Source: Acidimicrobiia bacterium (lineage in GTDB: Bacteria; Actinomycetota; Acidimicrobiia; Spongiisociales; ZC4RG35). Taken from it: DNA of 64,000 nt. Below, in pieces: positions 22,797-62,717 of the stretch (the first letter of the stretch is position 1; each line of letters starts with the position of its first letter). Below the pieces are notes generated by a model, which made no database searches, was not told the DNA's origin, and saw only the letters and a program-made list of their open reading frames with translations. Location: contig DATABS010000094.1 of NCBI GenBank assembly GCA_036259475.1, positions 11,801 to 75,800 of the forward strand, read 5' to 3'. Made by a program: the position numbers and the translations under genes.

Positions 22797-23249
22797 TCAG
22801 ATGAGCGCCTGGACGATCCACCCCGCAGCCAGGCCGTAGACGCCGGCCACCAGGTCGTCGGCGGTGACCCCCAGGCTCCCGGTCAGATGCTCGGCGGGAG
22901 CGACCCCGGGGAAGGCCCGCTTGAAGATGTCGGCGGCCCGAAACACGGCCCAGGCGACGAGGGCTGCCGGGAGGGCCAGACCGAGCGTGGCGAGGAAGGT
23001 CCCCGCCGCTTCGTCGATGACGACCCAGCCGGGGTCGCCTTCGATGCTGGCGAAGGGACGCACCGAGATGATCGAAGCCGCTGTCAGGGCAACCAGAGCC
23101 AGTGCCTGCGCCCAGGCACCGAAGGCTCCCAGCCATACGGCAAAGGGCAAGGCGAATAGCGAGCCCACCGTTCCCGAACCGATGTCGGCCCCACGAATCT
23201 GTCGGAGGATGAGGCCGGTCCCGAAGAACGAAGCGACGACACGTGACAC
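22797..23249 (-). CDS. pgpA: phosphatidylglycerophosphatase A
   Basis: PgpA-family small membrane protein, 150 aa; family assignment moderate. Confidence 0.6.
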   Translation of the reverse strand: MSRVVASFFGTGLILRQIRGADIGSGTVGSLFALPFAVWLGAFGAWAQALALVALTAASIISVRPFASIEGDPGWVVIDEAAGTFLATLGLALPAALVAWAVFRAADIFKRAFPGVAPAEHLTGSLGVTADDLVAGVYGLAAGWIVQALI

Positions 23250-23293
23250 TGCGGGGGAAGGGTAGGGTCTCCCCGGCCCCGCTCAGGAGAATC

Positions 23294-25174
23294 ATGGACC
23301 AGCGCCTTCACGGCATGAGCTATCCCTCCACGCCGGCCGTTTCGCCCGACGGCTCCCGGGTCGCCTTCGTCGTGACGGCGATCGACAGCGAGGCGGACCG
23401 CTATCGCAACGGGATATGGCTGACGGATGGCCGGGATACGGCCCGATTCACGGCCGGGGAAGGCGACACCTCCCCCGCGTGGTCACCGGATGGGTCGCGT
23501 CTTGCCTTCATGCGCAAGGAAGACGACCGGGCGCAACTGGCCGTCATTCATGTCGACGGGGGGGAAGCGAGCATCCTCACCGACTTTCCTCTCGGTGCGT
23601 TCGGTGAGCCGTCCTGGTCGCCCGACGGCAGCACGATCGCGGTGGTGGGCGGAGTGTGGCGCCCGGCGTGGGCCGACCTCGATGAAGACGCCCGGCAGGC
23701 CAAGCCACGACGCATCACCCGACGGGTCTATCGAGCGGACGGTCGAGGCTGGGTCCACGACCGGAGCCTGCTCATCCACCTGGTCGATCCGACCGGACGA
23801 TCCGGTGTGCGCCGGCTGACAGACGGAGAGGAAGACGAGACAGGACCGGCCTGGTCGCCCGACGGCTCGCGTATCGCCTACTTGTCCGACACGTCCGATC
23901 GCCCCGGCTACCAGCCGGGAACCGACATCCTGGTGGTGCCGGCCGACGGCGGTGAAGGCAAGCCGGTGGTGCCCCGCGGCATGTGGTACACCCTTGCCTA
24001 CCGACCGGACGGCATGCTCCATGCGATCGGGTATCCCGGCGACGACTTCCCGGACCATTCTCTCCTGTGGCGATTGCAGCCGGCTCCGGAGTGTGTCAAT
24101 CCCCAATCCGACCGCTCCCTGTTCTCCCTCACCGGAGGGAGCCGTCTGCGATTCGACGGTCAAAGGGCCGTCACCGAGTTGGTGGACTCGGGAGCAGTCC
24201 GGCTGGTCGCCGTCGCACCAGGCGGCGAAATGACAGACGTCCTGGGCGAACGCTCCGTGGTGACGGGATTCGATGTCGCCGCCGGCACCGTGGCGGCCAC
24301 GGTCTCCACCTTCGACACTCCCGCCGAGCTGGTGATCCACCGGGAGAGTGGAACTCAATCGCACGGCGACTTCGGCGGTCGACGGCGTGACGTCGCCGAA
24401 CCGCACCACATCGTGGTGGAGGGACCGGGAGCCCAGCTGGACCTGTGGGTGTATCTGCCGGCTGGTGACGCCCGGGTTCCCCTGCTGCTCAACATCCACG
24501 GGGGTCCCGCCGCCCAGTACGGATGGGGATTCTTCGACGAGTTCCAGGTCTACGCCGAGGCGGGGTACGGCGTGGTGGCCACCAACCCGCGTGGTTCCGG
24601 GGGCAAAGACCGCGAGTTCCTTCGCGCCGTGCGGGGCGAGGGCTGGGGAACCGTCGACGTCGAGGACATCGACGCCGCGGTGGCCGTTGCCCTCGAGCGG
24701 TTTCCTCGCCTCGACGCCGACCGCATGGGGGTGATGGGAGGCTCGTACGGCGGGTTCCTCACCGCCTGGCTCGTCGGGCACCAAACCAGATGGCGGGCGG
24801 CGGTCGTCGAGCGGGCGCTCCTCTCGTGGCCGAGCTTCGCAGGCACATCCGACATCGGCGGCTGGTTCGCCGGGAGCTACCTCGGCGGCCCGGAATTGGC
24901 CTGGGAGCGAAGTCCCTTGCGAGTGGCAGAAAAGGTGAAGACACCGACGCTGATCATCCACTCCGAAGACGACTTCCGCTGCCCCATCGAGCAGGCGGAG
25001 CAGTATTTCGACGCCTTGCTCCGAGCCGGGGTGGAGACCGAGTTCGTGCGGTTTCCCGGCGAGGGTCACGAGCTGTCGCGCAGCGGCAAGCCGCGCCATC
25101 GCGAGGAGCGTTTCGAGATCATCCTCGAGTGGCTGGGCCGCTGGCTCGGGGATGGCAGCGGTTCGCCGTCGTGA
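23294..25174 (+). CDS. S9 family serine peptidase (N-terminal beta-propeller with TolB-like WSPDGS repeats plus C-terminal alpha/beta hydrolase)
   Basis: repeated PAWSPDGSR(I/L)AF motifs; GGSYGGFL nucleophile elbow; ATG at 23294 with caggaga SD. Confidence 0.8.
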   Translation: MDQRLHGMSYPSTPAVSPDGSRVAFVVTAIDSEADRYRNGIWLTDGRDTARFTAGEGDTSPAWSPDGSRLAFMRKEDDRAQLAVIHVDGGEASILTDFPLGAFGEPSWSPDGSTIAVVGGVWRPAWADLDEDARQAKPRRITRRVYRADGRGWVHDRSLLIHLVDPTGRSGVRRLTDGEEDETGPAWSPDGSRIAYLSDTSDRPGYQPGTDILVVPADGGEGKPVVPRGMWYTLAYRPDGMLHAIGYPGDDFPDHSLLWRLQPAPECVNPQSDRSLFSLTGGSRLRFDGQRAVTELVDSGAVRLVAVAPGGEMTDVLGERSVVTGFDVAAGTVAATVSTFDTPAELVIHRESGTQSHGDFGGRRRDVAEPHHIVVEGPGAQLDLWVYLPAGDARVPLLLNIHGGPAAQYGWGFFDEFQVYAEAGYGVVATNPRGSGGKDREFLRAVRGEGWGTVDVEDIDAAVAVALERFPRLDADRMGVMGGSYGGFLTAWLVGHQTRWRAAVVERALLSWPSFAGTSDIGGWFAGSYLGGPELAWERSPLRVAEKVKTPTLIIHSEDDFRCPIEQAEQYFDALLRAGVETEFVRFPGEGHELSRSGKPRHREERFEIILEWLGRWLGDGSGSPS

Positions 25175-25283
25175 TGAGCCACCGGGCCGACCGGCACGGG
25201 AAAGCCTCGGACGGGCAGCGGCCTCGGGCACTCGGTTCGATCCCCCCGACCTGCCGCACCCTCGACCATGCCACAATGAGGCG

Positions 25284-26198
25284 ATGGACAAAGCCACCAC
25301 CATTTGGATGGACGGTGAGATGGTTCCGTGGGACGACGCCCAGGTCCACTTTCTCACCCATGCGCTCCATTACGGCACCGCCGTGTTCGAGGGCATTCGG
25401 GCATACCAGACTCCCGACGGCACTGCCATCTTCCGTCTTCGCGAGCACATCGAACGGCTCCGCCGTTCCGCCCAGGCCTACGCCATCCCCTGGAACCACG
25501 ACGTAGAAGAGCTGATGGAGGCGTGCCGTCAGGTGATGCGAGCGAATCGCCTGGAAACCGGCTACATCCGGCCGCTCGTCTATTACGGCGTCGGTGCCAT
25601 TGGCCTCAACCCAGCCGCGGCCGAAGTCAAGACCGGCATCGCGGCGTGGGAGTGGGGCGCCTACCTCGGAGAAGAGGGAATCCAGAACGGAATCCGGGTG
25701 CGTATCTCGTCGTGGCGGCGGATAAGCGGCCAGAGCTTCGTCCCCATCGCCAAGGGAAGCGGGCAATACCTGAACAGTGTCCTCGCCAAGCAGGAGGCGG
25801 TGGCTACGGGCTACGACGAAGCGCTGATGCTCAATGTCGACGGCAATGTGGCGGAGGGGTCGGGGGAGAACCTGTTCCTGATCCGTGACGGAATCGTGTA
25901 CACGCCGCCCGTCTCGACCGGAATACTCGATGGCATAACCCGCGCCTCGGTCATCGCCCTGCTGGAGGCGGAGGGAGTCGACGTTCGGGAGGCGGGGCTG
26001 ACACGGGGGGATCTCTATGCGGCGGACGAGCTGTTCCTGACAGGTACCGCCGCCGAAGTCACTCCGATTCGGGAGGTCGACGACCGGCCCATTGGAACCG
26101 GCAAGCCGGGTCCGCTCACCCGCCAGGCTCAATCGCTGTACGCCGACGCCGTCACCGGCAAGGTCGAGGCACGGAGCGGCTGGCTCGACTTCATCTGA
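25284..26198 (+). CDS. ilvE: branched-chain amino acid aminotransferase (class IV)
   Basis: about 304 aa class IV aminotransferase pattern (FEGIRAY..., EALMLNVDGNVAEGSGENLF); ATG at 25284. Confidence 0.85.
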   Translation: MDKATTIWMDGEMVPWDDAQVHFLTHALHYGTAVFEGIRAYQTPDGTAIFRLREHIERLRRSAQAYAIPWNHDVEELMEACRQVMRANRLETGYIRPLVYYGVGAIGLNPAAAEVKTGIAAWEWGAYLGEEGIQNGIRVRISSWRRISGQSFVPIAKGSGQYLNSVLAKQEAVATGYDEALMLNVDGNVAEGSGENLFLIRDGIVYTPPVSTGILDGITRASVIALLEAEGVDVREAGLTRGDLYAADELFLTGTAAEVTPIREVDDRPIGTGKPGPLTRQAQSLYADAVTGKVEARSGWLDFI

Positions 26199-26207
26199 GG
26201 AAACGAC

Positions 26208-26681
26208 ATGGCTCAGCAACCCAACGTCGAGCTCTCCCCGGCCGATCTGCCGGCGCCGGTTCTGGAGCCGGCACCGGCCCGACGCCAGAAGATACCCCGG
26301 CCCGGCGTCATCACCACCCCGGCCGAGAAACCTTCCGGGCCGGGATTCGGCAATCCCGGACCCGACACCGGGTGGGCGCTGCGAGTGATCGCCGAATCGG
26401 AGCTACCCGCCGAAGCCACACCCCGGGTGCGTCGGCTTCTGGCCGCCCTCATGGGGGCCCGGGCGGCTCACTACGGCCGGGCGCCGACCTACGGTGACCT
26501 CCGGGTCGCCCTCGACCTCGTGGGGCTGGGTGACAACCGCTCCGATGAGGACGATGCCCGCCGGCGGCGCTGGCTCGAGGCCATGTCGCATGAGAGGACC
26601 CCGGGTGGTCGGGCGGTGGCCGAAGCGGGGCCCGATCTCTATGCCGGTCCCCGTCGTATCGAGTCCCCGTCGTCGCAGTAG
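26208..26681 (+). CDS. hypothetical protein (Pro-rich N-terminus)
   Basis: ORF with ATG start; no recognisable motif. Confidence 0.35.
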   Translation: MAQQPNVELSPADLPAPVLEPAPARRQKIPRPGVITTPAEKPSGPGFGNPGPDTGWALRVIAESELPAEATPRVRRLLAALMGARAAHYGRAPTYGDLRVALDLVGLGDNRSDEDDARRRRWLEAMSHERTPGGRAVAEAGPDLYAGPRRIESPSSQ

Positions 26682-27205
26682 TGGCTTTCAAGTACCTGAC
26701 CGGCACGGTCGTACCCATAGAGGACCGGGCTTGGGCCGAGATGATGCCACTCGAGCATCTTCCCACCTGTTTCGGCTGCGGCTCGGAGAATCCCGACCGG
26801 CTGGGACTCAAGCCCACGGTCGAAGGCGACAAGATCGTCGCCGAGCTGGAATTCGAGCCGCGGTTCGAGGGCGGTCCCGGTCTCGTCCACGGCGGGGCGA
26901 CGGCGGCGTTCTTCGACGACCTCATCGGGTTCGTGGCGATGGCCCACCAGAAACCAGCCGTGACGGGAAACCTCCATGTCGACTACCTCAAGCCGATCCC
27001 GCTCGGCGTGAGCGTGAGGGGCGAGGCCTGGCTGACCGGTGTCCAGGACCGAAAGCTCTACACCGAGGCCGTCGGCTACCTGCCTGACGGGACCCGATGT
27101 GTCGAGGTGCGCGGCCTGTTCATCCAGGTGGATATCGATCATTTCCAGCAGATCGCCGGCCCCGAGGCTCTGAGCCCGTATCAGTCCGACGAGTACTACC
27201 CGTGA
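26681..27205 (+). CDS. PaaI/4HBT-type hotdog thioesterase
   Basis: LVHGGATAAFFDD motif; GTG start sharing 1 nt with the upstream TAG. Confidence 0.6.
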   Translation: MAFKYLTGTVVPIEDRAWAEMMPLEHLPTCFGCGSENPDRLGLKPTVEGDKIVAELEFEPRFEGGPGLVHGGATAAFFDDLIGFVAMAHQKPAVTGNLHVDYLKPIPLGVSVRGEAWLTGVQDRKLYTEAVGYLPDGTRCVEVRGLFIQVDIDHFQQIAGPEALSPYQSDEYYP

Positions 27206-27239: not shown

Positions 27240-28463
27240 GTGCGAGAGTCGGGGATGATCGGCACCACGCCGTTCCATCCACGAACCGAAGCCGCCAATC
27301 GGACCGGGCTGTGGGGCCACTGGGCCGGTTACCTGGCGGCCGAGAAGTACCAGCTTTCGGAGAAGGCCGAGTACTTCCTGATCCGCAACTCCGCCGGTCT
27401 CTTCGACACGTCACCCCTGTACAAGTACCGCGTCACCGGCGCCGAGGCGGAGCGGTTCCTGGCCGGTGTGCTCACCCGCGACATCCGCCACTGCCACCCT
27501 GGCCACGCCCAGTACACCGTTTGGTGCGACGACGACGGCCATGTGATCGAGGACGGGATCGTCATGCGTCTCGCCGACGACGAGTTCTTCCTGACGTCGG
27601 CCCGTCCCAACCTGGCCTACTTCCGGGGATTGGTCGGACGGCTAGAAGTCGAGGTAACCGACGTCACCGCCGATCAGGCCGCCCTGGCGGTGCAGGGTCC
27701 GCGCTCCCGTCGCCTGCTGACCAAGCTGGGGGACGGAACCGCCGAGCTGGATTACTTCGGGGTCGCCAAGTCCGAGGCGGCCGGTATCTCGGTGACTGAG
27801 TCACGTACCGGGTTCACCGGCGACCTGGGATACGAGATCTGGGCGCCCGCGGACGAAGCTCTCGCCTTGTGGGACGCCGTCACGGAGGCCGCCGAAGGGG
27901 AAGGAGCGGGCCCGGTCGGACAACAGGCGTTGCTGATGGCCCGGATCGAGGCCGGACTGGTCCTAATCGACGTGGACTACCGGTCAGCCAGGTTTGCCTG
28001 GACCCACAACGAGCGATCCACCCCCTCCGAACTGGGACTGGATTGGATGTTGAGGGATCTGGGCGACGATCGGCCATTCGTGGGACGGCGGGCTCTCCAG
28101 CTCGAAGCGGACCGGAACACCACCCGCAGGCGACTGGCCGGACTGATCGTTGACTGGGAGGACTGGGATGCCCGCCATGTCGAAGCCGGGCTGATTCCCG
28201 CCAAGGACCACCGCCCCGTCCACCAGGAGATGATGGTCTACTCCGGGGGCGATCCGGTCGGGTGGGCCTCCAGCTTCATGTACTCGCCGATCCTCCAACG
28301 CCACATTGCGTTGGCGCGAGTCCGCCCGGACCTGGCGGTTCCGGGTAACCGGGTCGGTCTCGAGGTGACGATCGACCACGCGTATCACACCGTTGGGGCC
28401 GTCGTCACCCGACTTCCGTTCTACGCTCCGGCGCACCGGACGGGCCGAGGTGATGTGCCATGA
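27240..28463 (+). CDS. GcvT-family (aminomethyltransferase-like) tetrahydrofolate-binding protein; candidate THF-dependent demethylase
   Basis: glycine-cleavage T-protein fold pattern (FDTSPLYKYRVTG, folate-binding region, C-terminal barrel); 407 aa. Confidence 0.7.
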   Translation: MRESGMIGTTPFHPRTEAANRTGLWGHWAGYLAAEKYQLSEKAEYFLIRNSAGLFDTSPLYKYRVTGAEAERFLAGVLTRDIRHCHPGHAQYTVWCDDDGHVIEDGIVMRLADDEFFLTSARPNLAYFRGLVGRLEVEVTDVTADQAALAVQGPRSRRLLTKLGDGTAELDYFGVAKSEAAGISVTESRTGFTGDLGYEIWAPADEALALWDAVTEAAEGEGAGPVGQQALLMARIEAGLVLIDVDYRSARFAWTHNERSTPSELGLDWMLRDLGDDRPFVGRRALQLEADRNTTRRRLAGLIVDWEDWDARHVEAGLIPAKDHRPVHQEMMVYSGGDPVGWASSFMYSPILQRHIALARVRPDLAVPGNRVGLEVTIDHAYHTVGAVVTRLPFYAPAHRTGRGDVP

Positions 28464-30055
28464 CCGACACCAATCGATACGACGCCATCGTGGTGGGGGG
28501 CGGCCACAACGGCCTGATCAACGGCGCCTACCTCGCCCGGGCCGGATTGCGCACACTGATTCTCGAGCGGCGGCATCTCGTCGGCGGGGCGGCGATCACC
28601 GAGGAGTTGTATCCCGGGTTCCACTTCACGACCTTCTCCTATGCCCTCAGCCTCCTCCGCCCCCAGATCATCCATGAGCTCGAGCTCACCAAGCACGGCT
28701 TCATGCCACTCCTCATGCCGACCAGTTTCGCTCCGTCCGAGACCGGCGACTACCTGCTGCTGGGCCAGGACGAGGGACACAACATGCGGGAGATCGCCCG
28801 TCACTCGCCAGCCGACGTCGACGCCTACAAGCAGTACAAGCACGACCTGGCCGCGGTGTGCCGGGCAGTTAAGCCGTTGCTCGACGAAATTCCCCCCGAT
28901 CCGTTCTCCGACGACCCCGGGGAACGAGTGAGGATGGCGGAGTTGGCCGGCCGCTTTCGCACCCTCGACAAGCGGACCTTTCACAATGCGGTGCGACTCC
29001 TCACCGGCAGCGCCGCCGACTTCCTCGATCACTACTTCGAGAGTGACCTCATCAAGGGATACCTGGCCAGCTCCGGCACAATCGGCAGCAAAGTCGGTCC
29101 CCGTTCTCAGGGCTCCGGCCTGGTCCTGCTCTATCACGTCATCGGTGAGCACGACGGTTCGTTCGGGTCCTGGGCGTTCCACAAGGGCGGAAATGGCGGC
29201 TTCGCCGAAGTGCTGGCCCGGGCGGCTCGGGCCTACGGGGCTGAGATCCGGCTAGAGTCTCCTGTCTCGACGGTGGTCACCGAGCAGGGTCGGGCGACCG
29301 GGGTCGCCCTGACCGACGGCACGGAGTTCGCCGCCGATCTCGTCGTGTCCGCTCTCGATCCCCGCCGGACCCTCCTCGAGTTGGTGGATCCGCGGCTACT
29401 ACCCGCCGATCTCGTGGAAGACATCCACCGCCTTCGTTTCGAAGGCGTCTCCTCGAAGGTCAACTTCGCACTGGCCGGCCTGCCGTCGTTTCCTGCGCTG
29501 GGACAGGGCGGCGATCACCTGCGCGGTTTCACCAACATCGGGCCATCGATGGATTACCTCGAGCGGGCCTTCGATGAGGGCAAGTACGGCTGGTACTCGT
29601 CACGACCCTACATAGACGCCGCTGTCCAGTCGACCATCGATCCCGACATGGCGCCGCCCGGCAAGCATGTGATGTCATGTTTCGTCCAGTACACGCCCTA
29701 TCACCTGAGAGAAAGCGACTGGGACACCGAGAGCGACAACCTGGGCGACCTCGTGGAGGCGACCCTGGAGCGCTTCTTCCCCGGCTTCGGCGATCTGGTG
29801 CTGCACCGGGAAGTGGTGACGCCGCTCGACATCGAACGCGTGGTGGGTCTCACCGAAGGCAACATCTTCGCCGGGGAGTTGCTTGCTCCGCAGATGTTCT
29901 TCTTCCGGCCGGCTCCGGGATGGAGCCAGTACAGGACGCCGATCGACGGCTACTACCAATGCGGCTCGGGCACCCATCCGGGCGGCTGCGTCATGGGGGC
30001 CCCCGGACGGCTCGCCGCACGCCAGATCCTCGACGACAGGGCGCGGAGCGCCTAA
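28460..30055 (+). CDS. NAD(P)/FAD-dependent oxidoreductase (phytoene desaturase/amine-oxidase-like)
   Basis: N-terminal YDAIVVGGGHNGLINGAYLARAGLRTLILERR dinucleotide-binding motif; ATGA overlap with the GcvT-family gene. Confidence 0.75.
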   Translation: MTDTNRYDAIVVGGGHNGLINGAYLARAGLRTLILERRHLVGGAAITEELYPGFHFTTFSYALSLLRPQIIHELELTKHGFMPLLMPTSFAPSETGDYLLLGQDEGHNMREIARHSPADVDAYKQYKHDLAAVCRAVKPLLDEIPPDPFSDDPGERVRMAELAGRFRTLDKRTFHNAVRLLTGSAADFLDHYFESDLIKGYLASSGTIGSKVGPRSQGSGLVLLYHVIGEHDGSFGSWAFHKGGNGGFAEVLARAARAYGAEIRLESPVSTVVTEQGRATGVALTDGTEFAADLVVSALDPRRTLLELVDPRLLPADLVEDIHRLRFEGVSSKVNFALAGLPSFPALGQGGDHLRGFTNIGPSMDYLERAFDEGKYGWYSSRPYIDAAVQSTIDPDMAPPGKHVMSCFVQYTPYHLRESDWDTESDNLGDLVEATLERFFPGFGDLVLHREVVTPLDIERVVGLTEGNIFAGELLAPQMFFFRPAPGWSQYRTPIDGYYQCGSGTHPGGCVMGAPGRLAARQILDDRARSA

Positions 30056-30058
30056 GCC

Positions 30059-31747
30059 CTACCAGTACTTCTCGGTGTGGACGTTGCCGACGTGGCCGTG
30101 CCGGTCGAGGTCGAAGCCCCTCTCGTGGAGTAGCTGGCAGGCGCCGGTCGGCTCGGGGAAAGTCGGGACGTCGTCGTTCCAGTGGGGGATGCCGATCATG
30201 GCGGGGTTGCCGCATAGGAAGACGTGCGATGTCTCCGGGTCGAGAGCCACGCCGAACTCCTCGCGCATCAGGTCACGGGTGATCACGTCCTGGACGTACA
30301 ACTTCTCCACGTCCGGTTCGCGAGTGACGATCGGGAGATAGTGATAGTTGGTGAAGCGGCTCGCCAGCTCTCGGTGGACGTCGAGGTATGCGAGGTCGGC
30401 CCGATAGCGGACACAGACGACCGAAACAATGGGCCCGTGGTGGCCTCGGCGCAGGAGGTCGGTGACCATGGCGTTGTGGGGAGCCTCGCCGGTGCCCGTG
30501 GCGAAGAAAACGGCCGTGGCGTCGGGCCGCCGGAGTGGAGCCAGCGTGTAGCGGCCGACGATCCTGGGACCCACGTAGATCCGATCACCCGGATTGGTCA
30601 GCGCCAGGCGGGGGGTGAGGCCCGGCACATGGTCTCCGCTGGCCGGGACGAGGACGACATAGAACTCGAGGGTTCCGGCCCGGGTCGGGTCGAACAGGTA
30701 GCCGTCTTCGTCGAAAACCGGGCTCGATATCGAATACGAGCGACGGACTAGATTCTCCCATTTCCGCTCGAGATCAGGATCGCGGGCCCCATCGGCCCTC
30801 GGTTCCCAATAGCCCAGCCCGAGAGAGGCGTACTGACCGGGATGAAAAGAGACGTCTCCCTGGTCCGGTTGGACCCGCACCACCCACAGATCCGAGTGGG
30901 TACGTTCGAAATGGGTGATGGTGGCGTTGTAGTGGCGACGCCGCAGCTCGGCGACCTTCTCGTCGGCGCCGACATGGGGGACAGGTGGCACGCCGTCGGC
31001 GGTCAGATGAGAGAAAGCATCCGATCGAATGCGATCCCAGGCACGGCCGGGCGCCAGGTCGGCGTCACCCACTTGCCACACCGGTCCCTGGACGGCGTCC
31101 CCACCGGCAGGCTCTGAGTCGTCGACGAGGACGACGTCGTCGAACACCAGGTCGGGCGTCCCCACGTCGTCGAAAGCCACGAGCGGCTCACCTTCGATGT
31201 CGGTGATCGTGGTCGGTCGGGAGTGCCACAGGATGGTGAGGCGTCGCTCGGCCTCCCGGAGGAGCAGCGCGCTACGGGTCAATCGGGATAGGTCGGAAGG
31301 GCTGCGGTTGCCGCGGGCGAGAACCACGCCGGCTCCGGCTTGGGACAGCTCGAGAGCGACCTCCGCCGCCTTCTCCGAACCTCCGGCGACCAGGATCTGA
31401 CGACCCCAGGTCTTGGTCGGGGGCTCGCGGTGCACCCGGCTCTGGAGAGAGCGGGGGACGCTGATCGCCGGCCCCTCGAGGGGTGAGCCACCCTCCACGA
31501 GGGCGACGGCTCCCGCCGCGGTCACTGTCCCGTCGACCTCCACCGTGACCCCATCATCCGACGGAGTCATCTCTCCGATCGGACCTCGCCATACCATCAG
31601 ATCGGGATGCGAGTCGGGTGGAACGGTGACAGGACCAGGTCGCGTCTCGACGAGCGCCACCGACTCGAGGCCGGCGTCGCGGGCTTCCATCGCCAGCGAG
31701 ATCGCGGCCCGGGAACTTCCCACTACCACCAGATCGACGCGTTCCAT
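30059..31747 (-). CDS. fusion of an NAD(P)-binding Rossmann oxidoreductase domain with ferredoxin-NADP+ reductase (FNR) domain
   Basis: N-terminal VDLVVVGSSRAAISLAMEARDAG; C-terminal FNR motifs RSYSISS (RxYS) and GTGEAPHNAM. Confidence 0.65.
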   Translation of the reverse strand: MERVDLVVVGSSRAAISLAMEARDAGLESVALVETRPGPVTVPPDSHPDLMVWRGPIGEMTPSDDGVTVEVDGTVTAAGAVALVEGGSPLEGPAISVPRSLQSRVHREPPTKTWGRQILVAGGSEKAAEVALELSQAGAGVVLARGNRSPSDLSRLTRSALLLREAERRLTILWHSRPTTITDIEGEPLVAFDDVGTPDLVFDDVVLVDDSEPAGGDAVQGPVWQVGDADLAPGRAWDRIRSDAFSHLTADGVPPVPHVGADEKVAELRRRHYNATITHFERTHSDLWVVRVQPDQGDVSFHPGQYASLGLGYWEPRADGARDPDLERKWENLVRRSYSISSPVFDEDGYLFDPTRAGTLEFYVVLVPASGDHVPGLTPRLALTNPGDRIYVGPRIVGRYTLAPLRRPDATAVFFATGTGEAPHNAMVTDLLRRGHHGPIVSVVCVRYRADLAYLDVHRELASRFTNYHYLPIVTREPDVEKLYVQDVITRDLMREEFGVALDPETSHVFLCGNPAMIGIPHWNDDVPTFPEPTGACQLLHERGFDLDRHGHVGNVHTEKYW

Positions 31748-31827
31748 CTCCGGAGATTCTGGCAGGGGCGGGGTAGCCGGGCGGCAACGCGCTCGCTAAG
31801 TTCCGAGCCGCATCTACAGGAGGACCA

Positions 31828-33591
31828 ATGGGCTCGCCCATCGCCGCCGACATCGACATCGCCCGCGCCGCCCGATTGCAGCCGCTGGGGGACATCGCCG
31901 AGCGAATCGGCCTTCTCCCTGACGAGCTGATTCCGTACGGCCCCAGCAAGGCCAAGGTCCATCTGGATGCGCTCAAGCGGCTCGCCTCGCGGCCGCGGGG
32001 CAAGTACGTCGACGTGACGGCCATCACCCCCACACCGTTGGGAGAGGGCAAGTCGACCACGACCGTAGGCCTGACCCAGGGCTTCGGCAGGATCGGCAAG
32101 GAAGCCATCGCCTGCATCCGTCAGCCCTCGATGGGCCCTACCTTTGGCATCAAGGGCGGGGCGGCCGGGGGTGGTTACAGCCAGGTCGTGCCGATGGACG
32201 AGTTCAATCTCCACCTCACAGGTGATATCCACGCCATCACCGCCGCCCACAATCTGGTGGCAGCCGCAATCGACGCTCGCTGGTATCACGAGACCCGCCT
32301 GGCGGATGAGCAGCTGACCGAGGTCGGTCTCGAGCGACTCGGGATCGACGTGTTCAATCTCCAGTGGAACCGAGTGGTCGACATCAACGACCGGGCCCTG
32401 CGCAACATCGTGGTGGGGCTGGGTGGCAAGGCAGACGGACGTCCACGGGAAACCGGATTCGACATCGCCGTCGCTTCCGAGCTGATGGCGATCCTCGCCC
32501 TGGTCGACGGTGACTCCTACGCCTCGGCTCTCCGCAACCTCCGGGAAAGGGTCGGGCGGGTCGTCTTCGGTACGTCGAAGGACGGCGACCCCCTGACGCT
32601 CGAAGACCTTGGGGTGGCAGGGGCGGTAGCCGTGCTGATGAAGGACACACTCCACCCCAATCTCATGCAGACGCTGGAAGGACAGGCAGCCTTCGTCCAT
32701 GCCGGGCCCTTCGGCAACATCGCCCACGGCAACTCATCCATCCTCGCCGACCGCATGGCTCTCCACCTGGGGGAGTACGTCGTGACCGAGTCGGGTTTCG
32801 GCGCCGACATGGGGATGGAGAAGTTCATGGACATCAAGTGCCGTACTTCGGGTCTCAAGCCCGACTGTGTGGTGCTCGTAGCCACGGTCCGGGCACTGAA
32901 GACCCACGGCGGAGGGCCGAAGGTGGTTCTGGGGCGACCGCTCGACAAGGCATACACCGAGGAGAACCTGTCGCTGCTGCAAGCCGGCATGCCCAACCTC
33001 GAGGCACACATCCGCAACGCCCAGCGCTTCGGAGTCCCGGTCGTGGTAGCTATCAACTCGTTCCCGACCGACACGTGGGCCGAGATCGATTTGATCAAAC
33101 AGAAGGCGCTCGAGGCCGGCGCCCTCGATGCCGTGATGGCCGACCACTGGGCCAGGGGAGGAGAAGGAGCGTCTGCCCTGGCAGAGGCCGTTGTGAAGGC
33201 ATGCGAGGAACCGAGCAACTTCTCCTACCTCTATCCCCTCAACATGGCCATCAAGGAGAAGATCGAGACCATCTGTCGCGAGGTCTACCGGGCCGACGGA
33301 GTCGAGTACTCACCGGCCGCAGAGCGCCAGATCGCCGGCTTCGAGAAGGCCGGCTTCGGATACCTGCCCATCTGCATGGCCAAGACCCACCTCTCGATCT
33401 CCCACGACCCGGCCCTCAAAGGAGCTCCGAGCGGTTTCACCGTCCCGGTGCGCGAGGTGCGGGCGTCGGTCGGCGCCGGCTTCATCTACCCGATCCTGGG
33501 TGAGATGAGGACGATGCCGGGCCTCGGGACCACCCCCTCATTCATGAAAGTCGATATCGACGAAGACGGAAACGTCGTCGGGCTCTTCTGA
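31828..33591 (+). CDS. fhs: formate--tetrahydrofolate ligase
   Basis: 587 aa; [17 protein letters not shown]-loop region and overall FTHFS pattern. Confidence 0.9.
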
Positions 33592-33650: not shown

Positions 33651-34418
33651 ATGAAGATCGTTCGATTCAAGGCCGGTGACGACATCGCCTACGGGCTGGC
33701 AGAGGCGGACGGGGTCACCCTCTACCAGGGAACGCCCTTTGTAGCCTGGGAGCCGACGGAAACGCTCATCCCCTGGGAGTCGGTACAGCTGCTGGCCCCG
33801 GTCTTGCCCTCCAAGGTGGTGGCGGTGGGCAAGAACTACGCCGACCATGCCGAGGAGATGGAGTCGGATATCCCCGAGGAGCCGATCATCTTCCTCAAGC
33901 CGGCCACCGCCGTCGTGGGCCCCAACGTTCACGTCGTCAAGCCGTCCGAGAGCGACGCGGTCCATCATGAGGCCGAACTGGCCGTAGTCATGGGCCGGGT
34001 GGCACGGCGAGTCCGGGCGGAGGACGCCTCCCAGTACGTCTTCGGGTACACCGCCGCCAACGACGTCACCGCCCGCGATCTCCAGCGGAAGGACGGCCAG
34101 TGGACCAGGGCCAAGGGCTTCGACACCTTCTGCCCGCTCGGGCCGGCCATCGAAACAGAACTCGACCCGCTCGAGCGGCTGGCGGTCATCGCCCGGGTGA
34201 ACGGTGAGGTGCGCCAGGCCGGATTCACCGTAGACATGGTCTTCGGCGTCGCCGAGCTCCTCGAGTTCATCACCCGGGTCATGACGCTCCTCCCGGGCGA
34301 CGTCGTGCTCACCGGTACGCCCTCCGGCGTGGGGCCGGTGGAGGTCGGCGATCTCATGGAGATCGAAGTCGACGGGATCGGTGTGTTGGCCAACCGGCTG
34401 GTGGCAGGCGGACAATGA
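33651..34418 (+). CDS. fumarylacetoacetate hydrolase (FAH) family protein
   Basis: FAH-fold motifs ([38 protein letters not shown]). Confidence 0.8.
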
Positions 34419-35824
34419 CGGTCCGAGTCAGAGTGGCTCCCTCGCCGACCGGCAACCTCCACGTCGGAACTGCTCGGGCCGCCCTGTACAACTGGCTTTA
34501 CGCCCGTCACACCGGCGGCACGTTCATCGTTCGTGTCGATGACACAGACGTCGCCCGCTCGACTCCTGAGTTCGAGTCCAACATCCTCGCCAGCCTCCGC
34601 TGGCTCGGCCTCGACTGGGACGAGGGGGTGGAGATAGGAGGCTCCCACGGCGACTATCGGCAATCGTCGCGCTTCGACCGGTACCGCCAGGTCGCCCACC
34701 AACTGGTTGCGGAAGGCGCTGCCTATTTCGACGACCGTTCATCCGACGAGCTCGACATCTTGCGCACTCGAGCGCAGCAGGAAGGCAAGCATCCGGGCCA
34801 CTACATCCGCCCTCCGGACGAGCCGAGGTCGGAGGGGGTCATCCGATTCGCCGCGAACCAGGCGGTGGAGTTCCAGGATCTCATCCGCGGCGACATGCGC
34901 TTCGACGGCGATTCGATCGACGACTTCGTGATTCTTCGTAGCGACGGCACACCCACCTACCACCTGGCATCCACTGTCGACGACGTCGACTACGGCATCA
35001 CCCACGTGGCCCGGGGCGAGGACCTTCTGTCGTCGACGCCCAAGCACATTCTGATCACGCGGGCAATGAGTGTAGAACCGCCGGTCTACGCCCACCTGCC
35101 ACTCCTGTTCGGCGCCGACGGCAAGAAGCTGTCGAAGCGCCACGGTGCCACCGCGGTGGACGAGTTCCGCCAGATGGGGTTTCTGCCCGACGCCATGGTC
35201 AATTACCTGGCACTCCTGGGATGGTCGCCCGGTGACGACCTGACCGTCTTCGACCGTCAACTGGCAGTCGACCGTTTCGACCTCTCAGATGTTCAGAAGA
35301 ACCCGGCAGTGTTCGATCTCGACAAGCTGACCTGGCTCAACGGCGAGTACATCCGGGCGATGGATCCGGCCGAATTCGCCGCTGAGGTCCGTCCACTGGT
35401 CGAGGACGCCGTCGGTTCGCTCACCGACGAGAAGTGGGCCGCCTTCGAAGCGCTGGCTCCACTCGTCCAGGAGCGGACCAAGCTCCTTCCCGAAGCAGCC
35501 GACCAGGCGCGGTTCCTCTACGTCGATGACCTGGAATACGACGAACAGTCCTGGAACAAGGTGATGGACAGGGAAGGCGTGTCAGAGGTCCTCGACGCAT
35601 CGCTCGCTGCCCTGACCGCGCTGGACGAGTGGGACACCGAATCGATCGAAGCCACGCTACGCCGGCTTCCAGACCGTCTCGAGCGAGGCGCGGGCAAAGT
35701 GTTCCAGCCGATCAGGGTGGCGGTGACCGGCTCGTCGGTCAGCCCGCCGCTGTTCGAGTCGGTCGCCGCCCTGGGACGCAACCCGTCGCTGGAGCGACTC
35801 CGGGAGGCTCGCCGTCGCCTCTAG
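34415..35824 (+). CDS. gltX: glutamate--tRNA ligase
   Basis: class I HIGH-like ([10 protein letters not shown]) and KMSKS (KLSKRHG) motifs; ATGA overlap with the FAH gene. Confidence 0.9.
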
Positions 35825-47383: not shown

Positions 47384-47992
47384 ATGACGGATTCGGCGGA
47401 GCAGGAGAGAGGCGATCGCCGGTCGGAGTTGCTACGGACGGTGTACCGGGTGATGGCCCGTGGAGGTGTTCACCGGGTGCCGTTGCAGACCATCGCCGAG
47501 GAGGCGGGCGTCTCCAAGGGCCTACTCCTGTATCACTTCGATACCAAGGACGCCATGGTGGTGGAGGCGATGCAGTGGGTCCTGGAGGCGACGGAGGCGC
47601 GGATCCGTCAGCACATCAAGGAGGCGGAGGGGACCGACCGGATCCTGGAAGCGATTCTCGAGGCCATTTGGATCGACGCCGAGGCCAACCGGGACTTCTT
47701 CCGGTTCTATCTGGATGGCGTCGAGCATCAGGCGCGATCCCCCCAATTCGAAGAGTTCGGAGACCGCGGGAGGAGTGTGATCAATCGTCTCTATGAGGAG
47801 GTGATCTCCGATGGGGCCGCCCGGGGTCTGTTCTCGGTTACCGACGCCGCCTCGGCGGCGACCGAGATGCGGGCGGTGATCGAAGGGATGTTCCTGCAGT
47901 GGCTTCAGCGCCGCGACTGGAGGGAGGCGCATGCCGGCTACAAGCAGATGTGTCTGGAAGCCGTGTCGACCCTGCTAGGACCGCCGGGATGA
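47384..47992 (+). CDS. TetR family transcriptional regulator (likely regulator of the downstream box/pob/pca operon)
   Basis: HTH LQTIAEEAGVSKGLLLYHFDTKDAMV; position heading the aromatic catabolic operon. Confidence 0.8.
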   Translation: MTDSAEQERGDRRSELLRTVYRVMARGGVHRVPLQTIAEEAGVSKGLLLYHFDTKDAMVVEAMQWVLEATEARIRQHIKEAEGTDRILEAILEAIWIDAEANRDFFRFYLDGVEHQARSPQFEEFGDRGRSVINRLYEEVISDGAARGLFSVTDAASAATEMRAVIEGMFLQWLQRRDWREAHAGYKQMCLEAVSTLLGPPG

Positions 47993-48038: not shown

Positions 48039-49688
48039 GTGATCGATTTCCAGACTCACCCGGACGATTATCGACACTGGAGGCTCCAGGTGGTGGGTCG
48101 AGTCGCTTACCTGAACATGGCGGTCGATGCGAACGCCGGGCTCCACCCGGGCTACGAGCTGAAGCTCAATTCCTACGACCTCGGAGTGGACATCGAACTG
48201 GCCGACGCCGTCCAGCGACTGCGCTTCGAGCACCCCGCGGTCGGCGCAGTGGTGATCGGATCGCAACTCGACCGGGTGTTTTGCGCCGGTGCCAACATCG
48301 GGATGCTGGCTGGCGCCGCTCATGCGCTAAAGGTCAATTTCTGCAAGTTCACCAACGAGACCCGAACTGCCATCGAAGACGCCACTGCCAACTCCGCGCA
48401 GCGCTATATCGCCGCCGTCAACGGCAACGCCGCCGGAGGTGGTTACGAACTGGCGTTGGCCACCGACCACATCATGTTGGTGGACGATCGCAGTGCATCG
48501 GTGTCCCTTCCGGAGGTGCCGCTGCTCGGCGTGCTTCCCGGCACCGGTGGCCTCACCCGCCTGACGGACAAGCGCCACGTCCGTCGCGATAGGGCCGACA
48601 TCTTCTGCACGCTCGAAGAGGGCATCAAAGGATCCAAGGCCCTCGAGTGGGGGCTGGTCGACGAGCTGGTGCCGGCGCCCTCCTTCGCCGAGGTGGTGGC
48701 AGACAGGGCCTTCACCTTCGCCGAGGAAAGCCCCCGTCCAGTGGTCGCTGAGGCAGTCAGCTTGACGCCACTCGAACGCGACATCGCCGACGACGCCGTC
48801 ATCTACTCCTCAGTCAGCTGCGAGATCGATCGTTCCCGGCGGACGGCATCGATCGTCCTGCGGGGGCCGACCGAGACGCCGCCCGTCGACGGGGATGAGG
48901 CGGTTGGACGAGGGGCCGAATTCTGGCCACTTCGACTGGCGAGGGAACTCGACGACCTCATCCTGCATCTGCGCGTCAACGAACTCGAGATCGGAACCCT
49001 GCTCCTTCGGTCAGAAGGTGACCTCGACGTCGTGCTCGCCCACGACGCCTTCTCCCTCCAAAATATCGACCACTGGTTCGTCAACGAGGTGACGTTGCAC
49101 TGGGCCAGAGTCCTGCGGCGCCTCGACATGACGTCGCGGACGATCATTGCGTTGGTCGAGCCGGGCAGCTGTTTCGGCGGCATGCTCGCCGATCTCACCC
49201 TGGCGGCCGATCGCTCCTACATGCTGGAGGGCTCGTGGTCGGGTGAAGGCGGCGCCACGGCGAACCTGGCCTTCACCGAGACGAGCCGAGGGCGCCTTCC
49301 CATGGCCAACGGGCTCTCCCGCCTCGCCACCCGCTTCTGGGGCAACGATGAAGGGCTCGACCGGGCCGAGGCGGCGATCGGTGAGAAACTCGACGCCGTC
49401 GCCGCCGCCGAGGCGGGTTTGGTGACCGACATCATGGACGACCTCGATTGGGACGACGAGCTGCGCATGCTGATCGAGGAGCGCGCCGCCTTCTCTCCCG
49501 ACGGCCTCACCGGACTCGAGGCGAACCTGCGTTTCGTAGGCCCCGAGACGATGGACACGAAGATATTCGGCCGCCTCACAGCATGGCAGAACTGGGTGTT
49601 CCAGCGACCCAACGCATCTGGAGAGTCCGGGGCCCTGCGTCGCTACGGAACCGGAATCCGGCCGGAGTTCGACCCGAGGAGAGTCTGA
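48039..49688 (+). CDS. boxC: benzoyl-CoA-dihydrodiol lyase-like (BoxC; double crotonase-fold, 549 aa)
   Basis: crotonase motif AAVNGNAAGGGYELALATDH; N-terminal FQTHPDDYRHWRL...LKLNSYDLGVDIEL; size about 550 aa; immediately followed by a BoxB-like di-iron protein. Confidence 0.7.
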   Translation: MIDFQTHPDDYRHWRLQVVGRVAYLNMAVDANAGLHPGYELKLNSYDLGVDIELADAVQRLRFEHPAVGAVVIGSQLDRVFCAGANIGMLAGAAHALKVNFCKFTNETRTAIEDATANSAQRYIAAVNGNAAGGGYELALATDHIMLVDDRSASVSLPEVPLLGVLPGTGGLTRLTDKRHVRRDRADIFCTLEEGIKGSKALEWGLVDELVPAPSFAEVVADRAFTFAEESPRPVVAEAVSLTPLERDIADDAVIYSSVSCEIDRSRRTASIVLRGPTETPPVDGDEAVGRGAEFWPLRLARELDDLILHLRVNELEIGTLLLRSEGDLDVVLAHDAFSLQNIDHWFVNEVTLHWARVLRRLDMTSRTIIALVEPGSCFGGMLADLTLAADRSYMLEGSWSGEGGATANLAFTETSRGRLPMANGLSRLATRFWGNDEGLDRAEAAIGEKLDAVAAAEAGLVTDIMDDLDWDDELRMLIEERAAFSPDGLTGLEANLRFVGPETMDTKIFGRLTAWQNWVFQRPNASGESGALRRYGTGIRPEFDPRRV

Positions 49689-52308: not shown

Positions 52309-52319
52309 GAGAGGCATGG

Positions 52320-53400: not shown

Positions 53401-53401
53401 G

Positions 53402-62707: not shown

Positions 62708-62717
62708 CCTGGTGGGG

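Follow-up and report, generated by a model that had tools for sequence, protein, structure and literature searches.

We propose that two overlapping genes in the window, the 64,000-nucleotide stretch of Acidimicrobiia DNA that was analysed, probably encode a two-subunit, THF-linked and flavin-dependent oxidative N-demethylase of a methylated amine. The PYROXD2-family flavoprotein (28460..30055) would oxidise a methylated amine, secondary or tertiary, at its N-methyl group to give an iminium, and its GcvT-like partner (27255..28463) would bind THF and trap the C1 unit as 5,10-methylene-THF, with no escape of formaldehyde. The demethylated amine would then move on, in many relatives presumably to a class-III aminotransferase. 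The substrate might be an N-methylated omega-amino acid, lysine or diamine. Such a logic would match that of dimethylglycine and sarcosine dehydrogenase, heterotetrameric sarcosine oxidase and TMAO demethylase. The proposal builds on the folds and family placement of the two proteins, their obligate gene pairing, their neighbour sets and the PYROXD2 homology of the flavoprotein, from which we infer the reaction, the complex and the substrate.

The overlapping genes and their pairing across genomes

Both genes lie on the forward strand. The mechanically called ORF of the first starts with a GTG at position 27240, ends at 28463 and carries the domains PF01571 (E = 6e-58) and PF08669. The ATG at 27255 is the better and likely the real start, giving a putative THF-binding protein of 402 aa, since the deposited protein (P0001; 100% identity) has the same length and the homologues begin with MI(R/G)TTPFH, the N-terminus of all family members in the alignment. 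The second gene encodes a 531-aa FAD oxidoreductase with a CrtI/amine-oxidase fold (Amino_oxidase, Pfam ID PF01593, E = 1.9e-18). As described in the initial annotation, a GcvT-fold ORF overlaps the FAD gene by ATGA (28460..28463): the TGA stop codon (28461-28463) shares two bases with the ATG start codon (28460-28462), suggesting translational coupling. A putative Shine-Dalgarno-like site, GAGGTGA (28447..28453, forward strand), lies within the 3' end of the GcvT-like gene, 6 nt ahead of the ATG of the FAD gene.

The FAD gene directly follows the GcvT-like gene in 88 of 88 related loci from about eight phyla, a recurrence that places the adjacency beyond chance. The GcvT-like side contributed 84 of these loci (84/84 adjacent, including frameshifted and contig-end cases) and the FAD side four, and the pairs span Acidimicrobiia, Chloroflexota/Limnocylindria, Nocardioidaceae, Gemmatimonadota, Planctomycetota, Myxococcota, and Acidobacteriota. 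The approximate intergenic gap has a median of 3 nt (62 loci), and the two proteins co-diverge with r = 0.91. Four alphaproteobacterial replicons of the plasmid collection carry a FAD1-FAD2-GcvT-like cluster, with FAD1 being 42 to 46% and the GcvT-like protein 34 to 40% identical to the window proteins, and Shinella sumterensis has the order FAD-gcvT.

Some FAD homologues are found without any GcvT-like gene, in Sphingobium, Rhizobium NZLR1 (with RidA and ETF nearby) and Paracoccus, so the flavoprotein is not strictly dependent on its partner. This would suit two functionally coupled enzymes that act in sequence, the formaldehyde from the flavoprotein's own reaction not being captured; the flavoprotein could, for example, be an amine or C-C dehydrogenase of the carbon skeleton, with the GcvT-like protein independently demethylating or cleaving an intermediate further down the pathway. 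We consider such a sequence of reactions unlikely, because the stop/start overlap, the unbroken adjacency and the co-divergence together suggest a physical complex, and because the HMM scores of the GcvT-like family match no lone methyltransferase type. To our knowledge, GcvT-fold proteins acting alone are methyltransferases with substrate-specific extras.

Neighbouring genes and the PYROXD2 link

About one-third of the loci have informative neighbours (TetR, Rieske oxygenase, aminotransferase, ABC transporter). A BetI-type TetR protein is encoded near the pair in 17 of the 88 loci, followed by a GbcA-like Rieske oxygenase (13/88), a class-III aminotransferase (12/88), an acyl-CoA dehydrogenase (10/88) and a PotD/PotF-like ABC transporter binding protein (8/88). 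The alphaproteobacterial clusters show the same neighbour set, and more distant FAD homologues adjoin a Rieske oxygenase, or GABA transaminase, SSADH, RidA, and ETF. Neighbours of this kind suggest methylated amines rather than aromatics. Counting against an N-demethylase, informative neighbours are absent within about 8 kb in 56 of the 88 loci, the window among them, although many of these loci are short contigs. One homologue (P0385, 44% identical), a single sequence, forms a fusion with a complete GFA glutathione-dependent formaldehyde-activating domain, which would be an alternative route for trapping formaldehyde; as far as we know, not all GFA-domain proteins are formaldehyde activating.

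The pair might also work in the reverse, biosynthetic direction, the GcvT-like protein drawing on 5,10-CH2-THF to deliver a C1 unit, which the flavoprotein would reduce or fix onto an acceptor, in a flavin- and folate-dependent methylation or aminomethylation comparable to MnmE/MnmG, TrmFO, or ThyX. Folate-binding GcvT-fold domains work with FAD enzymes in MnmEG, and both the conservation of the flavoprotein, whose homologues are 77 to 86% identical across phyla, and the housekeeping surroundings in the window (ilvE, gltX, fhs) would suit a core function. The chances of this route appear slim, however, as the informative neighbours belong to catabolism (an uptake transporter, a TetR repressor, a Rieske oxygenase, an aminotransferase and an aldehyde dehydrogenase), formaldehyde release is what the GFA fusion suggests, and the human PYROXD2 allele with the conserved Thr is linked to lower levels of N-methyl metabolites, a direction that we infer (PMC5780481, PMC8109053).

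Orangutan and mouse PYROXD2 align with the window FAD protein over the full length at 40 to 41% identity (E = 1e-121 and 8e-129), and when 1.84 billion representatives were searched exhaustively, PYROXD2 was among the top-ranked families, with oyster PYROXD2 at rank 27. The proteins share an N-terminal GxGxxG motif, a C-terminal GSGTHPGG motif and a QYTPY motif, the last of which holds the site of human Met461Thr; relative to the window protein, PYROXD2 is extended by about 30 aa at its N-terminus. In the NJ tree, PYROXD2 groups with an alphaproteobacterial branch and not with the window's clade (sister-group bootstrap, 71%), and on this placement it is a subfamily relative of the window protein, not a strict orthologue. 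PYROXD2 is described to be mitochondrial (PMC8777681) and to lack carotenoid activity in cell assays (PMC12010460), and the literature searched reports neither an enzyme activity nor a GcvT-like partner for it. The human evidence used here is genetic association only: a missense variant accounts for about 50% of the plasma N6-methyllysine variance and 48% of the N6,N6-dimethyllysine variance, and associations with N-methylpipecolate, TMA, DMA, and crotonobetaine have been found as well (PMC8109053, PMC5780481, PMC13355647). The likely amine demethylation by the gene pair thus offers a testable idea of PYROXD2 function.

Relation to known demethylases and flavoproteins

The GcvT-like family has the invariant motifs SRTGFTGDLGYE and E99-D100-G101 and family-specific insertions, and the window protein stays under every NCBIfam equivalog cut-off (GcvT, DmdA, LigM, DesA, SoxA, Tdm). 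The family profile best matches the THF domain of TMAO demethylase (Tdm; 197 bits; PDB ID 9q59/9q5a), with the match spanning both the TPFH segment at the N-terminus and the tail at the C-terminus, and then GcvT, SoxA, dimethylglycine oxidase (DMGO; 118 bits), and DmdA; dimethylglycine dehydrogenase (DMGDH) gives 102 to 107 bits. In Tdm, one polypeptide of about 790 aa, catalysis is the task of the N-terminal domain, a metalloenzyme that uses no flavin. This catalytic half is missing from the window protein, which therefore reaches 209 bits on the Tdm model (NF053776), with a cut-off of 1100; its match to the SoxA C-terminal domain is 172.8 bits. The AlphaFold2 model (pLDDT 88) adopts the GcvT fold, with the glycine-cleavage T protein superposing best (TM 0.82, rmsd 2.5 A), SoxA at TM 0.81 and LigM worst (TM 0.73, rmsd 7 A), but the structure search does not separate T-protein and demethylase THF domains, all at TM of about 0.8.

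In heterotetrameric sarcosine oxidase (SoxABDG) and N-methylglutamate dehydrogenase, a flavoprotein oxidises the N-methyl group and the C1 unit exits as 5,10-CH2-THF, and here, as in the pair, the flavoprotein and the GcvT-fold THF module are on separate polypeptides. Their catalytic flavoprotein is, however, of the DAO type (SoxB), whereas the window flavoprotein is of the CrtI/PYROXD2 type; their THF domain is the C-terminus of an alpha subunit of about 1000 aa and not a stand-alone protein of 402 aa, and they have extra delta and gamma subunits where the window system consists of two genes only. DMGDH, sarcosine dehydrogenase, DMGO, and 4-methylaminobutyrate oxidase also combine FAD-dependent N-demethylation with C1 capture by a GcvT-fold THF domain. 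In each of these enzymes, a DAO-family flavin domain at the N-terminus and the THF domain are fused in one polypeptide, whereas in the window a GcvT-like gene is followed by an FAD gene from a different flavoprotein family.

The second ORF had been called a phytoene-desaturase-like flavoprotein, and its fold is indeed common with the CrtO ketolase, CrtI, and CrtD. The fold search lists CrtD and CrtI first (4rep, E = 3e-22; 4dgk, E = 8e-21) and amine oxidases next, the sequence identity to CrtI and CrtD of solved structure being about 16 to 18%, and the structure model is of moderate quality (pLDDT 75, disordered stretches). The best NCBIfam matches are CrtO with 253 bits (cut-off, 1000) and crtI_fam with 106 bits (cut-off, 238), both far under the cut-offs. 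That carotenoid enzymes are nevertheless the nearest characterised relatives speaks against an N-demethylase, as does a Deinococcus homologue (32% identity) within a carotenoid cluster. CrtI-type carotenoid enzymes act on C-H/C-C bonds of lipids. No carotenoid genes are found near the window pair.

Surroundings of the pair in the window

The gene for formate-tetrahydrofolate ligase, fhs (31828..33591, forward strand; NF010031, 811.6 bits with a cut-off of 800), starts 1773 nt past the stop codon of the FAD gene, in agreement with the 1.8 kb given in the initial annotation. Between them, on the reverse strand, lies a gene (30059..31747) for a 562-aa protein whose N-terminal half is Rossmann-like and whose C-terminal half is of the FNR type (Pfam ID PF00175). 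This gene converges with the FAD gene and diverges from fhs, so fhs forms a separate transcription unit. We can only speculate that this protein serves as an electron acceptor. It is kept in the syntenic relatives L002 and L003 only, and these are also the only two of the 88 loci where fhs adjoins the pair. Of the earlier idea, a THF-dependent demethylase stands as the best reading and the functional tie to the FAD oxidoreductase is supported, whereas the C1-salvage link to fhs is not; fhs could help to oxidise the C1 unit in this genome, but the link is not conserved.

The initial annotation had considered a LigM/DesA- or DmdA-type methyltransferase acting on vanillate/syringate or DMSP, in which fhs would recycle the C1 unit and a protocatechuate pathway about 20 kb away would be fed. 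The GcvT fold and the nearby fhs would fit, the ligM region of Sphingobium reportedly carries an fhs homologue, and a beta-ketoadipate-type cluster does exist at 51061-57438 (FAD_binding_3, Dioxygenase_C, CoA_trans, Lyase_1, and a hydrolase, assigned at the Pfam level). This cluster lies 23 to 29 kb from the pair, with gltX, PPDK, and other housekeeping genes intervening, and a functional link is unsupported given this distance and the absence of its families from the recurrent neighbours. An aryl-O- or DMSP demethylase is very improbable: the LigM, DesA, and DmdA HMMs give 65.5, 62.3, and 92.6 bits (cut-offs, 580, 800, and 410), LigM superposes worst, fhs is rarely adjacent, the neighbours elsewhere are amine-type, and the FAD partner is obligate, whereas we know of no flavoprotein required by LigM, DesA, or DmdA.

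We give almost no credence to a bona fide glycine-cleavage T protein merely beside an unrelated flavoprotein, the reading that the initial annotation had set against its own: GcvT ranks second among the profile matches (NF001567, 183.6 bits; B. subtilis T protein, 175 bits) and first among the structural ones, and ilvE, which adjoins gcvT in Mycobacterium, lies upstream, but TIGR00528 (132 bits; cut-off, 235.85), NF001567 (cut-off, 300), and NF010093 (122 bits; cut-off, 459) all score too low, gcvH and gcvP are neither among the scanned larger ORFs of the window nor recurrent near the 88 loci, and the invariant FAD adjacency, the co-divergence and the family-specific insertions support a GcvT-fold paralogue instead. 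Upstream on the forward strand, ilvE (25152-26198), a 157-aa ORF (26208-26681), and a 4HBT thioesterase gene (26681-27205) may be co-transcribed with the pair, beside which this block is kept only in L002 and L003.

The GcvT-like and FAD gene pair

The GcvT-like gene (27255 to 28463, plus strand) and the FAD gene (28460 to 30055, plus strand) share the ATGA stop/start overlap described in the initial annotation, which is real in the sequence, and a GAGGTGA motif lies 6 nt ahead of the ATG of the FAD gene. Of the two possible starts of the GcvT-like gene, 27240 and 27255, the ATG at 27255 is the likely one, because the deposited protein has 402 aa and all homologues begin with MI(R/G)TTPFH. The window has a G+C content of about 67%, and its proteins are 100% identical to P0001 (the deposited copy of the GcvT-like protein) and P0121, both entries of an Acidimicrobiia metagenome-assembled genome.

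A genome scan with the family alignment, from which the best 80 of at least 600 matches were used, gave together with four metagenome loci a set of 84 loci, and the FAD gene directly follows the GcvT-like gene in all of them; the loci that seem to deviate come from long-read assemblies with frameshifts or stop at the end of a contig, and the first part of the FAD gene is still visible there. The search from the FAD side yielded four more loci, each with the GcvT-like gene upstream, bringing the total to 88 of 88. The approximate median gap within the pair is 3 nt. Carriers among the best 80 belong to the Acidimicrobiia, Chloroflexota/Limnocylindria, Nocardioidaceae, Gemmatimonadota, Planctomycetota, Myxococcota, and Acidobacteriota, with Nocardioides aquiterrae, N. 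aequoreus, and N. sp. SR21 as cultured Nocardioidaceae, and the at least 600 scan matches spread over about eight phyla. The divergence of the two proteins correlates (r = 0.91), and the FAD protein is always better conserved than its partner, with a mean identity of 71% versus 54% across loci L001 to L084 and of 77 to 86% versus 57 to 71% for the closest database homologues, even between phyla. This higher conservation could reflect either strong constraint or recent horizontal spread. In one locus (L098), a second, apparently split or degraded GcvT-like copy (2387 to 3557, minus strand) lies beside a Rieske oxygenase and upstream of an intact TetR/GcvT-like/FAD unit.

The GcvT-fold module is obligately tied to a putatively oxidising module, as expected of an N-demethylase, by both the 88 of 88 loci and the stop/start overlap, and the two genes probably encode the subunits of an oxidative N-demethylase linked to THF. 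In this reading, the FAD protein would convert a secondary or tertiary amine to the iminium, presumably by oxidation at an N-methyl group, and the GcvT-like subunit would move the C1 unit onto THF, yielding 5,10-CH2-THF. Two less likely rival readings accept the same two proteins: they might be enzymes acting in sequential, uncoupled steps, against which stand the invariant pairing and the overlap, or they might catalyze a flavin- and folate-dependent C1 transfer in the reverse direction.

To our knowledge, all flavoproteins described in THF-linked oxidative N-demethylation are of the DAO type (DMGDH, SARDH, Sox, DMGO, and MABO), the only other known enzyme being the metal-dependent TMAO demethylase Tdm, whereas the flavoprotein of the pair is of the CrtI/PYROXD2 type. 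The full-text literature searched contains no description of a GcvT and phytoene-dehydrogenase-like pair; one “aminomethyltransferase family protein” found in it proved to be Tdm. The type of chemistry is already known, and what appears to be new is the architecture, in which a CrtI/PYROXD2-type flavoprotein is translationally coupled to a GcvT-like subunit that stands alone. If true, this would be a new two-subunit class of THF-linked demethylases, widespread among the Actinomycetota and Chloroflexota genomes found, which are mostly metagenome assembled.

By family assignment, the pair is preceded on the plus strand by genes for an S9 peptidase (23243 to 25174), ilvE (25152 to 26198), and a 4HBT thioesterase (26681 to 27205). 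Between the latter two lies an ORF of 157 aa (26208 to 26681, plus strand) with no Pfam or NCBIfam match, a high GC3 (0.79), and 58% conservation in the two syntenic relatives of the window (L002 and L003). Downstream, 3 nt from the end of the convergent FAD gene, the minus strand encodes a 562-aa protein (30059 to 31747). Its N-terminal half is Rossmann-like and contains two GxGxxA-type motifs, and an NAD_binding_1 domain of the FNR type lies at the C terminus. The gene is divergent from fhs and conserved only in L002 and L003; a role as redox partner is conceivable but unsupported. The fhs gene (31828 to 33591, plus strand) is genuine, scoring 811.6 bits against a cut-off of 800, and starts 1773 nt past the FAD stop; it is followed on the plus strand by genes for an Rv2993c-like FAA hydrolase (33651 to 34418) and gltX (34415 to 35824). 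The initial annotation counted fhs into the module, which we do not uphold: it adjoins the pair in just 2 of the 88 loci and belongs to another transcription unit, since the convergent gene stands between it and the FAD gene. The FNR-like gene, ilvE, the thioesterase gene, and the 157-aa ORF likewise accompany the pair only in L002 and L003. In this genome, fhs could join in C1-unit oxidation, but the data do not support membership in the module. The promoter and terminator scan of 22.5 to 34.5 kb returned nothing above the shuffled background.

Family placement of the GcvT-like protein

The GcvT-like protein contains the GCV_T (PF01571, E value 6e-58) and GCV_T_C (PF08669, E value 1.3e-12) domains in a three-domain cloverleaf fold. 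Its predicted structure (pLDDT 88) superposes on 1woo and 1yx2 with a TM score of 0.82 and an rmsd of 2.5 Å. T proteins, SoxA, DMGDH, DMGO, and DmdA all superpose with TM scores of about 0.8, and LigM with 0.73 (rmsd 7 Å), so that the structure search gave no separation of T proteins from demethylase THF domains.

The protein stays under every curated NCBIfam cut-off. The highest score is found for the Tdm model, C-terminal half only (209 bits against a cut-off of 1100), followed by GcvT NF001567 (183.6 against 300), SoxA (172.8 against 1164), GcvT TIGR00528 (132 against 235.85), and GcvT NF010093 (122 against 459). The profile built from 29 family members and scored against solved structures ranks the Tdm THF domain first (197 bits), before the Bacillus subtilis T protein (175), SoxA (137), DMGO (118), DmdA (3tfh; 115), and LigM (84), and the Tdm match takes in the N-terminal TPFH segment. 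As to whether THF binding may be retained, the motifs SRTGFTGDLGYE and E99-D100-G101 are invariant in the family, and each aligns with the corresponding GcvT and Tdm motif. With profile scores serving as a proxy for a tree with LigM, DesA, DmdA, and DMGDH references, the protein almost certainly does not belong with the canonical GcvT proteins or with enzymes of the LigM, DesA, or DmdA type.

A canonical T protein of the glycine cleavage system would share the fold, but the curated cut-offs and the gene context lead us to reject it. The GcvT cut-offs are not reached, no gcvH or gcvP is present among the larger ORFs of the window that were scanned (they may be elsewhere in the genome), the only ORF of about 900 aa in the window encodes pyruvate phosphate dikinase, and no gcvH/gcvP-type family recurs among the neighbours of the 88 loci.

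The aryl-O-demethylase or DMSP demethylase called plausible in the initial annotation is likewise rejected, with scores of 65.5 bits for LigM, 62.3 for DesA, and 92.6 for DmdA (NF009133) against cut-offs of 580, 800, and 410 and a gene context that argues against it; the LigM and DesA test, defined by the NF047885 or NF047633 score and a length of about 450 to 470 aa, finds these models matching only residues 44 to 241 of the 402 aa. The protocatechuate pathway cited in its favour has a counterpart in a beta-ketoadipate-like cluster (51061 to 57438) with a PobA-like FAD_binding_3 protein, Dioxygenase_C, CoA transferase, Lyase_1, and alpha/beta hydrolase, lying 23 to 29 kb away. At lower coordinates than this set are a BetI-type TetR regulator (47384 to 47992) and a 549-aa enoyl-CoA hydratase-domain protein (48039 to 49688).

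The flavoprotein and human PYROXD2

The fold ranking of the FAD protein places CrtD/CrtI first, followed by amine oxidases, among them NicA2, MAO-N, putrescine oxidase, and Pnao, with identities of about 15 to 18%. Its best NCBIfam match is the CrtO ketolase (NF045689, 253.1 against a cut-off of 1000), and the crtI family (TIGR02734) is matched with 105.6 against 238.1. No carotenoid genes are present in the window or the related loci, and a role as a carotenoid enzyme is rejected on the curated cut-offs and the gene context; a Deinococcus homologue with 32% identity does lie inside a carotenoid cluster.

A human PYROXD2 sequence served as a search query only, and all comparisons were made with retrieved database entries. 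Over the full length, the window FAD protein is 41% identical to mouse PYROXD2 (376 bits, E value 8e-129) and 40% identical to orangutan PYROXD2 (358 bits, E value 1e-121). Among 19,876 hits of an exhaustive phmmer search against 1.84 billion cluster representatives, where the window's own clade amounts to about one representative, oyster PYROXD2 ranks 27 (412 bits), and the top 150 also include PYROXD2 from a flatworm, a mayfly, and a choanoflagellate. Judged by this full-length similarity, which clearly exceeds that to other CrtI-like families, the window FAD protein is a PYROXD2-family enzyme.

In a neighbour-joining tree rooted on the Deinococcus carotenoid-cluster homologue, PYROXD2 falls within a radiation of bacterial homologues, of which several are GcvT linked. 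It is sister (71% bootstrap) to a branch of Sphingobium, Shinella sumterensis, Rhizobium NZLR1, and Paracoccus proteins, which contains one GcvT-linked member; the window clade and FAD1, the first of two tandem flavoproteins in alphaproteobacterial clusters, branch off together next to these, and FAD2 diverges closer to the root. Since PYROXD2 groups with the alphaproteobacterial branch and not with the window clade, it is a subfamily relative and not a strict orthologue.

The top 150 phmmer representatives include no GcvT-FAD fusion, and the only informative fusion among them is P0385, a homologue of 816 aa and 44% identity with a full-length GFA domain (PF04828, 59.7 bits) N-terminal to the flavoprotein. 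The GFA domain is that of glutathione-dependent formaldehyde-activating enzymes, and the fusion may hint at formaldehyde release by the flavoprotein, a hint only because it is a single sequence. P0385 (L100, 1437 to 3887) lies on a contig with the eukaryote-like genes RTC, VMP1, and CDP-alcohol phosphatidyltransferase.

The PYROXD2 missense variant rs2147896 (p.Met461Thr) accounts for about 50% of the plasma N6-methyllysine variance and 48% of the N6,N6-dimethyllysine variance and is also tied to N-methylpipecolate, trimethyllysine, TMA, and DMA (PMC8109053, PMC5780481). The counterpart of residue 461 in the window protein is T412, which lies in a QYTPY motif, and the position is Thr in non-human primates, mouse, and a marsupial and Thr or Ala in the GcvT-linked bacterial proteins. 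A beta of -0.66 is reported beside p.Met461Thr, and the metabolite-raising allele has a frequency of 0.64 (PMC5780481, PMC8109053); the direction deduced from these effects suggests that N-methyl metabolites are lower with the conserved Thr. Biallelic PYROXD2 variants cause an infantile mitochondrial disorder, and the 2022 paper describes the function in generic family terms only (PMC8777681). Synechocystis CrtO is about 35% identical to PYROXD2, which was inactive toward carotenoids when assayed in cells (PMC12010460). The papers found report no enzyme activity of PYROXD2, and the literature searched draws no link from it to THF, GcvT, or demethylase activity.

We tentatively propose that the module is the bacterial counterpart of PYROXD2 and that the family consists of oxidative demethylases that release formaldehyde from N-methylated amines, with the GcvT-like subunit or GFA trapping the C1 unit; bacteria would pair the PYROXD2-family enzyme with a dedicated THF-binding GcvT-like subunit, and one lineage would carry a fused GFA. 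Example substrates would be N6-methyllysine, N6,N6-dimethyllysine, N-methylpipecolate, and the demethylation products of butyrobetaine and valerobetaine. PYROXD2 has for years been a leading metabolite-QTL gene (methyllysines, N-methylpipecolate, TMA, and DMA), and if the proposal is true, a gene that ranks among the strongest and best-replicated human metabolite-QTL genes, and that is also a mitochondrial disease gene, would gain a function. The invariant cross-phylum pairing gives this orphan human enzyme a concrete candidate function and a specific hypothesis testable at the bench, for which cultured carriers exist, among them Nocardioides aquiterrae JCM 11813, N. aequoreus, Shinella zoogloeoides ATCC 19623, and Rhizobium sp. 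SL42.

Neighbouring genes and possible substrates

Beyond the pair, no neighbour family, counted with HMMs built on the neighbour clusters, exceeds 17 of the 88 loci, the frequency of a BetI-type TetR regulator. It is followed by a GbcA-like Rieske oxygenase (13 of 88; 223 bits to glycine betaine monooxygenase, below the cut-off), a class-III aminotransferase (12), an acyl-CoA dehydrogenase (10), a PotD/PotF-like binding protein (8), and an aminobutyraldehyde/betaine-aldehyde-type dehydrogenase (4). None of these six families is found in 56 of the 88 loci, many of which are short contigs.

The same neighbour set occurs independently in alphaproteobacterial replicons of a plasmid collection. 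In Rhizobium sp. SL42, Fuscovulum ytuae, Shinella zoogloeoides, and Parasedimentitalea marina, a TetR gene adjoins FAD1, FAD2, and an “aminomethyltransferase family protein”, with 42 to 46% identity to the window protein for FAD1 and 34 to 40% for the GcvT-like protein. These clusters also hold Rieske alpha subunits (annotated as SRPBCC or ring-hydroxylating), an omega-aminotransferase, and a PotD-like or polyamine-type ABC transporter, and two of the four include a 678-aa OYE/TMADH-type flavoprotein. In Shinella sumterensis, FAD-gcvT stands amid CoA-ligase, hydratase, 3-hydroxyacyl-CoA dehydrogenase, and BKACE genes. More distant FAD homologues have no GcvT-like neighbour, such as the one in Sphingobium, immediately 3' of a Rieske oxygenase; the Rhizobium NZLR1 homologue is found with GABA transaminase, SSADH, RidA, acyl-CoA dehydrogenase, and ETF genes.

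These neighbour sets point to amine catabolism, particularly of methylated or quaternary amines. Where present, the GbcA-like Rieske oxygenase would strip the first methyl group off a quaternary amine, and the aminotransferase would process the demethylated product, which would bear a primary amino group. Candidate substrates are methylated lysine, 4-aminobutyrate, 5-aminovalerate, beta-alanine, or diamines, among which the sequence does not decide.

In Rhizobium (L085, 13397 to 13648; no Pfam match) and Shinella (L087, 13386 to 13631), the GcvT-like gene is immediately followed by a conserved hypothetical ORF of about 82 aa, which might encode a third small subunit. About 5 kb upstream of the FAD1-FAD2-GcvT-like genes of Rhizobium sp. 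SL42 (L085, 1242 to 3916) are genes for a fatty-acid-desaturase family protein, a MocE-family ferredoxin, and an FAD oxidoreductase, a set that we take to resemble rhizopine (moc) catabolism genes.

Elsewhere in the window, the region from 8070 to 10240 (plus strand) holds a 518-aa fusion of Rieske [2Fe-2S], Pyr_redox_2, and Reductase_C domains that overlaps folE (GTP cyclohydrolase I; 9623 to 10240, plus strand) by 4 nt, and such a redox fusion beside a folate/pterin biosynthesis gene is unusual. A short MetE-like protein (Meth_synt_2, 374 aa; 58258 to 59382, minus strand) is encoded beside a branched-chain amino-acid-type ABC transporter with a permease and a Peripla_BP_6 binding protein (59418 to 63998, minus strand).
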